A DNA stretch of 64,000 bases from positions 160,001 to 224,000 of the forward strand of contig CM000431.1 of assembly GCA_000165345.1 (NCBI GenBank), written 5' to 3'. Positions 58,067-64,000 of this stretch are shown one piece after another. The position numbers were made by a program, and so were the translations under genes. Below the pieces are notes generated by a model. That model ran no database searches. It worked only from the letters and a program-made list of their open reading frames with translations, and was not told the DNA's origin. Position 1 is the stretch's first letter. Every line of letters starts with the position of its first letter.

Positions 58067-61000
58067 ATGATCATGACAAAATGGGTATACAATGTTTTTC
58101 TAATATTATTTTTTCAAGCATTTCTGGTGGTATTAGCCTCAACCGAATTTGAAAGCTTTAAACTTGGTAGAGTTGAGCCTCAAAAACTTAAGATTATTTC
58201 AAAAACTACCACCTTAAATGATTATGGTTCATTGGGAGTCTATTCCTTTAAAAATTCAAAAGATGAAGTTGTTATGAAGAGTATTCTCTTTCCTAATTAT
58301 GCAGTATTGTTTGATGAAGATAGAAGACAGTTTTGTTCTGGAAAGTATTCTGCTGACTCTCATACTTACAGTGCAGGCGATCAAATACCTTTTTTCTTAA
58401 ACTATTGGACTGATAAATATACTTATAGATACTGGGTCTTGGAATCTGATCAGGGAGTAATATGTATGCTTCCCTATACATTAGAAACAAACTTTACCAA
58501 AGTTATTACTGAAGTTGATTCAGATTTTCAATTTGAGCTTGCTCCTACTTATGAACCAAACAACACCAATTCAATAATCCAACAAACTCCTTTATTTGAT
58601 TATTCCCAGAGCTGTACTTTAAGTCTATTCCAAGGATGTTTTTCTTCTGAGTTTGTTCTTTCTCTTCCAGACTCTTCTTTTACTTCTGGATTAGAGTTTG
58701 TTGTCAGAGGCTTTTCTGAGTTTAGAACATACAAGGGAGTTTTCTCAGAGCTCATATTTCATGATAAAACAGCTTCAAATGCAAAAATACTACATATCAT
58801 CATTAACCCTGATATGATTGGTATACATCTTGTAGGTACTGGAGATCAAATTTGGGGTAAATTAAAACACCAAGTAGAAATTGGAAATATGAAATTCAAT
58901 TATGATTTTAGAATTATAATCAAAGAAAAATGGATATATATTACTTCTCCACAAGGTCAGACTTTGGTTTCATCTAAACTTCCTGACAATTTCTCCAATG
59001 TAGGTAAGATTGTTTCACCCCAAAGAAGTGTATCAGATCCTACCTTTATACAAGTTCTTTTGGCATCCAATACTGAGATTTCCAAGGATTTCATTCAGAG
59101 TGAAGCTTTTTGTCTTCTTTCAATGTCTCCATTTACATCTCAGGTTGAGAACATCTTAGGATTTAGCCAGGAAGTCCTCTTTACAGAAAATTATCATCTT
59201 GATATTTCTCTAGATATACAATCTTTTGATTCTATTCAAGAAGAGGATCTACTTCTTGGCATCTCTTTTGACGAACTTTTGATTGATCCTGCTAATCTTG
59301 AGATCCAGAGAACTAGTCACTTAACTGATCCTAAACTCAGAATTGGTCTCTTTAAGGGATATATATCCCTGGAAGAAATGCAAAGTAGAACTATTATCAC
59401 TGGCTCATATCAAGCTAGTATTAATTCTAAAGTTACTATTCAAATCCAACCAATTTCTAGTGAAAATAAGCTTAGGATCTTATACAAAATAGATCAGTCT
59501 AATTGGTTTAGGCTTACTGAAGTTTCTGGTGAATTGAATAGGCTTTTCAACAAAATCAAATTTGAGAAGAACTCAAAACATTCAGAGATTCTGAGTTATA
59601 CTATTAAAGGAGAAGCTGATGCATCTTCTCTTGCTACTACCTACACAGATAGTACTCCATTCATATCTCCAACTTCTGATAACCTTTGTAAACTAATGCC
59701 ACTATCGTATTGTAACTCTCAAGATGTATCTTTTGTAATTGAAGATCTTACACAAGTAGAAGGAAAGGATCAAGCAATGGAAGAAGAAACAAGTAAAGTT
59801 GAGTCTTTGATGAGTATTAATAATGTGACCATTCAAATACCAAATTTTCCAACATCCAACAATGATTTAATGTACAAATGGAGACTTTTGTCCAATGATA
59901 TTTCAGTTTATGAGATTTCAGTATTTCAAACTTCCATTTCAATCACGAACTTAATCAGCTATGAGACAATCACAGGACCTCCAATGAGTATTATTAGTCA
60001 ATACTCAGAGAACTTAGGAATCTCAATAATATTTCAAACTACAAAAATCTTCATTGTTGACTCTGGTACTAATAATATTATTGCTTCTATATCTAAATCA
60101 AAGAATCTAAATATTAACAAAATCCAAACATCATATGAAAAAAAGATCTCTGTTAACTATTATTCATCTTATTCATTTACTCCTGGTCCAAAAACAACTT
60201 CAACTGAATCTACTATCCTAAATGTTTTATTTGAATGTCAATTTTTCAATCAATGTAATTATGGAAACTATGTATGTCAAGGTTCTAGTGCGAGACAATT
60301 ATGTAAAGATCCTGAGATCATGAAACTTTGGTATAGTGGTCCTTTGATCTCTACTGATACTTCCTTAAGCCTGGGAGTTTTTCCAAATTCTTTATCTGTT
60401 TTTACTATTGGAAGTCAAAACAAAAATCTATTTCTTATTAATGTATTTGAGAGATATATCTCACTTAGTGATCCATTTTCAGGAAGATCTTGTTATAATG
60501 AGCTTCCAAACAATATAGTACTGAATCAAAACTCTTATGTTAAGTTTGGAGTTATTGTCTCAAATGGAAAAAGAGTAGATCTGGTTTATTTCTCAGGAAA
60601 TGATACTCCAAATCTGTTATGTTCTATAAGTATCCAAGGAAGATTCATCTCTGATTTTTATTTCTTTGAATCTAATGGACAAGGCCTATCATCTACAATT
60701 GGAGATATTACTATGAATACTGAACTGGAGGACTTAAGTGGTCAAATAACAACAATTTCCCCTCCTGCAGAGTCCAATTCTAATAGTTTGGTTCCTTTCA
60801 AACCAAGTAATCAATTAGATTTGGAGCTCAGTTCTGAACTTAAAGCCAATATGGGAGTACATTTTGATGTTAATCTAGATCCTAATTCAGATTCTGCCTT
60901 AGTTATTGGAGTTTCTATTTTAAACAGATATCAGGATATTCATACTCATCTATATATTTCAGGAGGAAGTTATCCTTCAGTAATACTTAGCTCAAATATA

Positions 61001-64000: not shown

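Follow-up and report, generated by a model that had tools for sequence, protein, structure and literature searches.

The N-terminal sixth of the very large Cryptosporidium parvum protein cgd3_720 is very probably an array of lectin-fold domains

Introduction

At the right-hand edge of a 64,000-nucleotide stretch of Cryptosporidium parvum DNA (GenBank assembly GCA_000165345.1, contig CM000431.1, forward-strand positions 160,001 to 224,000; hereafter the window), a plus-strand open reading frame (ORF) starts at an ATG at position 58067 and is still open at the last base, 64000. The closest described system is cgd3_720 of C. parvum Iowa II, which is identical in DNA to the ORF and shares its start codon and upstream neighbours; the window is simply partial. 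This gene lies on chromosome 3 and has been listed as an insertion/deletion (INDEL) hot spot at 240-245 kb (PMC9317183). Ever since the genome was first released, it has borne the label "very large probable mucin", with ~11,700 amino acids (aa) and a signal peptide. It is annotated as 11,700 aa with a 308-aa Thr repeat (PMC3305300), and has been listed as a polymorphic "very large mucin" (PMC4407392).

At the level of fold, several families invite comparison with the domain array described below. Tandem-repeat galectins (galectin-4, -8 and -9) and fungal galectins (CGL2, AAL/ACG) have a sequence identity to the array of only 5-15%, and no match to PF00337 was obtained. Galectins are cytosolic proteins exported unconventionally. 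The present array, by contrast, has a signal peptide and conserved cysteines and would comprise dozens of domains rather than two, and its sugar binding is putative. The alpha-neurexin and laminin alpha LNS/LamG arrays are, like this one, extracellular strings of concanavalin-A-like sandwiches (Foldseek E ~2e-7), although EGF spacers are absent here and Pfam gave no Laminin_G match. TM-scores to these arrays are low (0.17-0.24) because the inter-domain geometry differs, and an evolutionary link is not demonstrable. The Toxoplasma gondii protein M2AP, a zoite-expressed micronemal escorter of MIC2, has a single galectin-like domain and no sequence similarity to the ORF.

Other comparisons concern large secreted proteins. 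Apicomplexan LCCL-lectin (CCp/LAP) proteins are Cys-containing modular secreted proteins, made in female stages, that have a signal peptide and no transmembrane domain. The COWPs share each of these traits and carry a cysteine every 10-12 residues (PMC12548878). cgd3_720 resembles both groups as a Cys-containing modular secreted protein with a signal peptide and no transmembrane domain. In its window part, however, neither the cysteine spacing nor the type I/II repeats of COWPs were found, as cysteine makes up 1.7% of residues with two to six in each ~170-aa domain, and Pfam searches of the ORF and its orthologues detected no COWP, LCCL, discoidin or ricin domains. GP900 (cgd7_4020) and other Cryptosporidium mucins are, like cgd3_720, large secreted glycoproteins with Thr runs, and both GP900 and cgd3_720 are polymorphic and INDEL-rich (PMC9317183). 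GP900 is described as a type-I membrane protein made up largely of mucin domains (PMC9111948), whereas the parts of cgd3_720 examined here lack an anchor and are dominated by folded domains.

A 35-kb gene at the edge of the window

The original prediction, made from the letters of the window and a list of its ORFs, described a frame of more than 1977 codons that ran stop-free from ATG 58067 to the window edge, met no competing ORF longer than 100 aa, and was presumably left off the list for want of an in-window stop. Translation of 58067-64000 (plus strand) gave 1978 codons and no stops, whereas the other five frames contain 106-231 stops apiece. Stop triplets are expected at ~7.6% at the base composition of the ORF (our estimate), which puts the chance of a stop-free run of 1978 codons at an estimated ~1e-68. 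A TAG in the same frame at 58052, five codons 5′ of the ATG, leaves 58067 as the earliest possible start, and this is also where the gene models begin in three C. parvum assemblies. The longest rival ORF on either strand between 57000 and 64000 is 100 aa (61725-62027, plus strand), in agreement with the prediction, and the GC content of the frame is 0.40 at the first codon position and drops to 0.23 at the third. The frame was also missing from the ORF list made in this analysis because it runs past the window edge, and the lister omits by design any ORF that runs off an end, which bears out the reason proposed for its absence. A track that discards every frame lacking a stop inside the window will conceal the largest genes; in this case, a gene of 35 kb would pass for 6 kb of non-coding DNA.

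Comparison of the window ORF with C. hominis TU502 DNA yielded a ratio of nonsynonymous to synonymous substitution rates (dN/dS) of 0.12, with a dS of 0.074 and a dN of 0.0088, and as judged from these rates the window part of the gene is under purifying selection. No DNA tandem repeats were found inside it. The product had been expected to be a large, Cys-containing, Ser/Asn-rich protein, and its composition confirms this: Cys accounts for 1.7% and Ser plus Thr for 18% of the 1978 residues, and the C. hominis orthologue contains 11.1% Ser and 7.8% Asn.

The frame is almost certainly the 5′ end of cgd3_720. Its DNA has no mismatches over 5934 nucleotides to three C. parvum assemblies (100% identity), whose gene models from this ATG encode products of 11,696, 11,643 and 11,696 aa. 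The adjacent upstream protein of 1320 aa is encoded identically in three chromosome-scale C. parvum assemblies, with the next gene starting at the equivalent of 58067, and in 9.5 kb of the gene examined from a C. parvum assembly the frame is still open for 3171 codons. cgd3_720 is a single-exon gene of ~35 kb on C. parvum chromosome 3, and the window contains ~17% of it, the first 1978 of ~11,696 codons, with the stop ~29 kb past the window edge. The predicted length thus stands for the window but understates the whole gene about six-fold, and the notion of an overlooked gene has to be given up: cgd3_720 is already annotated, the ORF forms its 5′ 17%, and the ORF itself is no discovery. Alternative identities were considered and dropped. 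A cgd1_6xx gene adjoining an ABC transporter was discarded, given that the neighbour protein maps to a 1.10-Mb C. parvum chromosome and that the literature fits cgd3_720. The CpLSP large secretory protein family is a seven-gene cluster on chromosome 7 (cgd7_3800-3870; PMC1779779), and the present locus is set apart from it by its location on chromosome 3 and by neighbours without BLAST similarity to the ORF.

Probable lectin-fold domains in the N-terminal sixth

The protein begins with MIMTKWVYNVFLILFFQAFLVVLA/STEF, in which hydropathy places a hydrophobic segment at residues 5-29. Residues 1-24 (58067-58138, plus strand, as are all features of the ORF given below) form a signal-peptide-like N-terminus with likely cleavage after VLA, consistent with the signal peptide that had been proposed, and hydropathy revealed nothing else that resembles a transmembrane segment across the 1978 residues. 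The orthologues from C. canis and C. muris start with an equivalent N-terminus. In the C. muris protein, which is complete, this N-terminal hydrophobic segment is the only one, with no transmembrane segment and no hydrophobic C-terminus, while a C-terminal fragment from C. hominis has no hydrophobic segment and ends in an acidic tail. This lack of an anchor points to a soluble secreted product, without a membrane anchor in the parts examined.

The cysteine pattern splits the window part into ~11 domains of ~170 aa with two to six cysteines per unit, and several of these domains open with a short Cys motif of the disulphide type. Two domain types recur. Type A opens with C-x7-11-C, and type B opens with C-x5-C-x6/7-C-x8-C and has two further cysteines; profile comparison with hhalign shows a distant homology between A and B (94.8%, E 5e-8). 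The window contains three A-B pairs (residues 536-890, 1098-1455 and 1646-1978), and more are found downstream in C. hominis and C. canis. Beyond the window edge, the pair becomes part of a super-repeat of ~620 aa, in which A and B are followed by a Pro/Gly-rich linker, then by a further Cys-containing domain that bears the motif SPQCGPYCSTYP, and last by 7-20 Thr residues in a row.

Following the signal peptide, D1 (residues 25-180; 58139-58606) is a B-like beta-sandwich without the N-terminal Cys cluster (hhalign against the B profile 91.7%, E 7.9e-7), and its Cys90 and Cys133 are conserved in orthologues. D2 and D3 (residues 181-535; 58607-59671) show weak profile similarity, D2 to A (27.6% hhalign probability) and D3 to B (32.5%); D2 opens with an A-type C-x7-C whose Cys183 and Cys191 are kept from C. 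parvum to C. muris. The first A-B module comprises D4 (A, 536-715) and D5 (B, 716-890) at 59672-60736, matches the hidden Markov model (HMM) of the module with 348 bits, and has the cysteine pattern C-x7-C, then C-x5-C-x6-C-x8-C and two further cysteines. D6 (residues 891-1097; 60737-61357) is a conserved region, colinear in all orthologues, in which no similarity to the A and B profiles was found. The second module, D7 (A, 1098-1268) and D8 (B, 1269-1455) at 61358-62431, matches the HMM with 389 bits, and D8 and D11 compare at an hhalign probability of 98.1%. D9 (residues 1456-1645; 62432-63001) opens with C-x7-C and is all-beta, its AlphaFold blocks consisting entirely of strands at a predicted local distance difference test score (pLDDT) of 45-89; hhalign profile comparison found no sequence similarity to A or B. 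The third module, D10 (A, 1646-1812) and D11 (B, 1813-1978) at 63002-64000, is predicted to form galectin-like beta-sandwiches, and the window edge coincides with the end of D11.

The original prediction recognised no domain in this protein, and for sequence searches this holds. Pfam returned nothing meaningful for the ORF, its neighbours, the C. muris orthologue, the C. hominis fragments or 26 module sequences, the last giving no match even at E up to 10, and a profile search of the module alignment against PDB sequences also found nothing. At the fold level the description changes. A first AlphaFold model, made with 10 sequences, had a pLDDT of 55, and a second, covering residues 1456-1978 and made with 26 orthologous and paralogous units, was all-beta with a pLDDT of 81.4 and a predicted TM-score (pTM) of 0.67. 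The best Foldseek matches to this second model were multi-domain arrays, namely neurexin LNS2-6, laminin LG1-3 and tandem-repeat galectins (330-641 columns, E ~1e-7). The neurexin and laminin alignments extend over 605-641 columns, as compared to a query of 523 residues, and are long enough to span it. The multi-domain nature of the best matches points to concanavalin-A-like sandwiches in at least two of the three modelled domains. T. gondii M2AP, through its galectin-like domain, was also among the structural matches, at 9.9. The model has the galectin-type beta-sandwich fold and, more broadly, the two-sheet jelly-roll sandwich of ~130-200 aa that defines the concanavalin A-like lectin/glucanase fold (LamG/LNS, GH16, PL7 and others). 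Galectin membership by sequence was not found, in that neither the whole proteins nor the 26 modules matched the PF00337 profile. For the model, then, resemblance to the galectin and LamG folds is established, and membership of those sequence families is not. The window part of cgd3_720 is very probably an array of galectin/concanavalin-A-like, lectin-fold domains.

Orthologues across the genus

Colinear orthologues were found in six species. Over the 1978 residues, identity is 98% to C. hominis (XP_666597 and PPS92548), 64% to C. canis, 50% to C. bovis, and 33% to C. muris (CMU_037990) and C. andersoni (cand_033810), and nearly every cysteine of the window part is kept out to C. muris. A C. 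canis protein matched at 63% identity is named "mucin-like protein, partial", and gene order upstream of the ORF is the same in that species. An exhaustive HMMER search of 1.84 billion representative proteins with the A-B module profile returned 10 matching proteins, all from Cryptosporidium and all consistent with orthologues or assembly fragments of cgd3_720. As judged from these matches, the domain family is restricted to Cryptosporidium and apparently single-copy.

The C. muris orthologue is complete, with five A-B modules in 3523 aa. Set against the 11,696 aa of C. parvum, an approximately three-fold greater total length in the intestinal species, this indicates that the super-repeat was strongly amplified in the intestinal lineage. 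Gene models for the orthologues are often fragmentary. Short-read assemblies of C. hominis and C. canis split the gene into several "partial" models, the C. hominis TU502 model (2262 aa) is truncated, and one C. canis record has ~320 aa of apparently out-of-frame N-terminal sequence followed by a module. Catalogues therefore miscount and mis-size cgd3_720.

A possible role in oocyst formation

The cgd3_720 transcript was undetected at 2-24 h of culture, with 93% of its signal at 48 h, and the gene has been discussed among sexual-stage-associated transcripts (PMC3305300). It is also over-expressed in oocyst/sporozoite RNA sequencing (RNA-seq; PMC7193590). Given a lectin-like N-terminal sixth and an onset of expression with the sexual stages, cgd3_720 is a candidate for a part in oocyst formation. 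The protein would be made from 48 h on, when sexual stages appear in culture, and then secreted to serve as a multivalent scaffold of great length. Its lectin-fold domains would bind glycans or partner proteins, and its Thr linkers would carry O-glycans. Such a scaffold could introduce cross-links into the zygote or oocyst glycoprotein matrix, either as wall layers or as tethers between sporozoites and the wall. The explanation as a whole, in which identity and architecture weigh more than function, is probable. The functional part on its own, a secreted glycan-binding or scaffolding matrix protein of the oocyst or sexual stages, is a tentative proposal that falls somewhat short of an even chance. 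A bolder version is more doubtful again: that cgd3_720 is one of the longest known galectin-fold tandem arrays, with at least 50 sandwiches (estimated from the 11,696-aa length and the ~620-aa repeat, not counted), secreted by the female or zygote as a glycan cross-linker that builds the oocyst wall or sporozoite tethers. This major diarrhoeal pathogen is transmitted by way of oocyst formation, of which few components are known beyond the COWPs, and cgd3_720 offers a testable candidate for a structural or glycan-binding part.

Several points weigh against a matrix role. The oocyst/sporozoite transcript (PMC7193590) is just as compatible with a sporozoite protein. The literature consulted yielded no data on the localisation, proteomic detection or binding of cgd3_720, and the gene is unmentioned in the supplements of one oocyst-wall (COWP) study and one air-liquid interface (ALI) culture/RNA-seq study. 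A lectin fold is no proof of sugar binding, and no Pfam galectin or LamG match was obtained for the ORF, orthologues or modules. The fold model covers D9-D11 (residues 1456-1978), with D2, D3 and D6 outside it, and the parts of the gene examined were the window part, 9.5 kb from a C. parvum assembly, the complete C. muris orthologue and fragments from other species, short of the full 11,696 aa and the 308-aa Thr repeat.

The main rival to the matrix role is a GP900-like, mucin-type sporozoite adhesin, stored in secretory organelles, whose lectin-like domains would attach to host cells or mucus. While such an adhesin would account for the oocyst/sporozoite transcript data and for the polymorphism of the repeat region, no transcript is seen at 2-24 h, the period in which merozoites form, and these have the same machinery for invasion. 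The product also differs from GP900 in having no transmembrane anchor, and its window part is under strong purifying selection (dN/dS 0.12) and is without any Ser/Thr run. An adhesin is accordingly rather unlikely, although it is the strongest of the rivals.

Considerably less likely is a true mucin, in which function would reside in Thr repeats that are heavily O-glycosylated, and the folded domains would do no more than space them out. The annotated 308-aa Thr repeat (PMC3305300) is in keeping with this, as are the Thr runs of 7-20 aa found between the modules of fragments from C. hominis and C. canis; one of these runs is a sub-threshold match to the Pfam Mucin family (24.9 bits against a cut-off of 34.7). 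However, 308 aa amount to less than 3% of 11,700, the complete C. muris orthologue has a single T run of six or more, and none of the 1978 window residues falls in an S/T run of at least six, with S, T and P together making up 14-30% of each 100 aa. Long Ser/Thr/Pro-rich repeats, which in a mucin are a major part of the protein, were not found in the window part, and conservation from C. parvum to C. muris falls on the folded domains and cysteines, not on the linkers. The "mucin" label does not fit the parts of cgd3_720 examined, which are the N-terminal sixth and further fragments, and the gain from this analysis is a corrected description: a genus-specific galectin/concanavalin-A-fold array without a Pfam model, instead of a mucin. 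Finally, a chance open frame, pseudogene or assembly artefact without functional coding has a negligible probability and is already refuted, for while very long ORFs in AT-rich genomes are suspect and this gene is broken into partial models in short-read assemblies, the frame has no stops as compared with 106-231 in the others and a dN/dS of 0.12, three independent assemblies of long-read scale carry an identical sequence, six species have colinear orthologues, stage-specific transcription has been measured, and the AlphaFold model is confident.

Flanking elements and neighbouring genes

Upstream of the ORF, short elements are conserved while the remaining intergenic DNA around them has diverged in C. 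canis. The pattern CATGCA-N(1-4)-CCAGTAC has two matches in the 64-kb window, both upstream of the ORF, with 0 expected by chance. The first copy, CATGCA-A-CCAGTAC at 57815-57828 (plus strand), is a candidate promoter element kept in C. parvum, C. hominis and C. canis. The second, CATGCA-N4-CCAGTAC at 57883-57899, is held within the block TCTTACTTGACATGCAATAGCCAGTACGTATAAATTGTGAGGA (57873-57915, plus strand), which is near-invariant in the three species. Comparison of these species also identified a conserved GCGCGCGCG run at 57844-57852 and a 26-nucleotide block, GTAGTGTAGAATAAAAGTAGGTAGAA (57968-57993, plus strand), identical in all three and likely to be 5′ untranslated region or core promoter. 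They are candidates for stage-specific promoter elements, and the gene that they precede is first expressed at 48 h.

Directly upstream lie ORFs of 1045 aa and 1320 aa, both signal-peptide-like, preceded by an ABC transporter. A signal-peptide-like N-terminus is found in 10 of the 18 long ORFs of the window, among them several within 6501-57580. Paralogy of the giant ORF with its two upstream signal-peptide genes (1045 and 1320 aa) was considered and rejected, as BLAST gave no matches, and no sequence similarity was detected by BLAST among the signal-peptide ORFs or between them and the giant ORF. The "secreted block" is therefore positional, not familial: the original prediction, which made this ORF its largest member, was right that the neighbours carry signal peptides, but without detectable similarity they are not paralogues. 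The signal-peptide gene at 50063-53200, two genes upstream of the ORF, contains a (CCT)n / 12-mer repeat at 51290-51503, and its product varies in length among C. parvum assemblies, from 1045 aa here to 1036, 1056 or 1076 aa elsewhere.

Elsewhere in the window, 24000-30000 is very AT-rich (GC 0.19-0.28), with an AT skew of -0.36 at 26-28 kb and overlapping ORFs on both strands at 25529-27701. Divergent MFS-type transporter genes, with sub-threshold Pfam MFS_1 matches, occupy 2614-4089 (minus strand) and 4602-6083 (plus strand). In the TTG-start ORF at 17529-21851 (1440 aa), an ATG 11 codons in is followed by the signal-peptide-like sequence MKALFLAFLIIFIGG, and this ATG is probably the real start.
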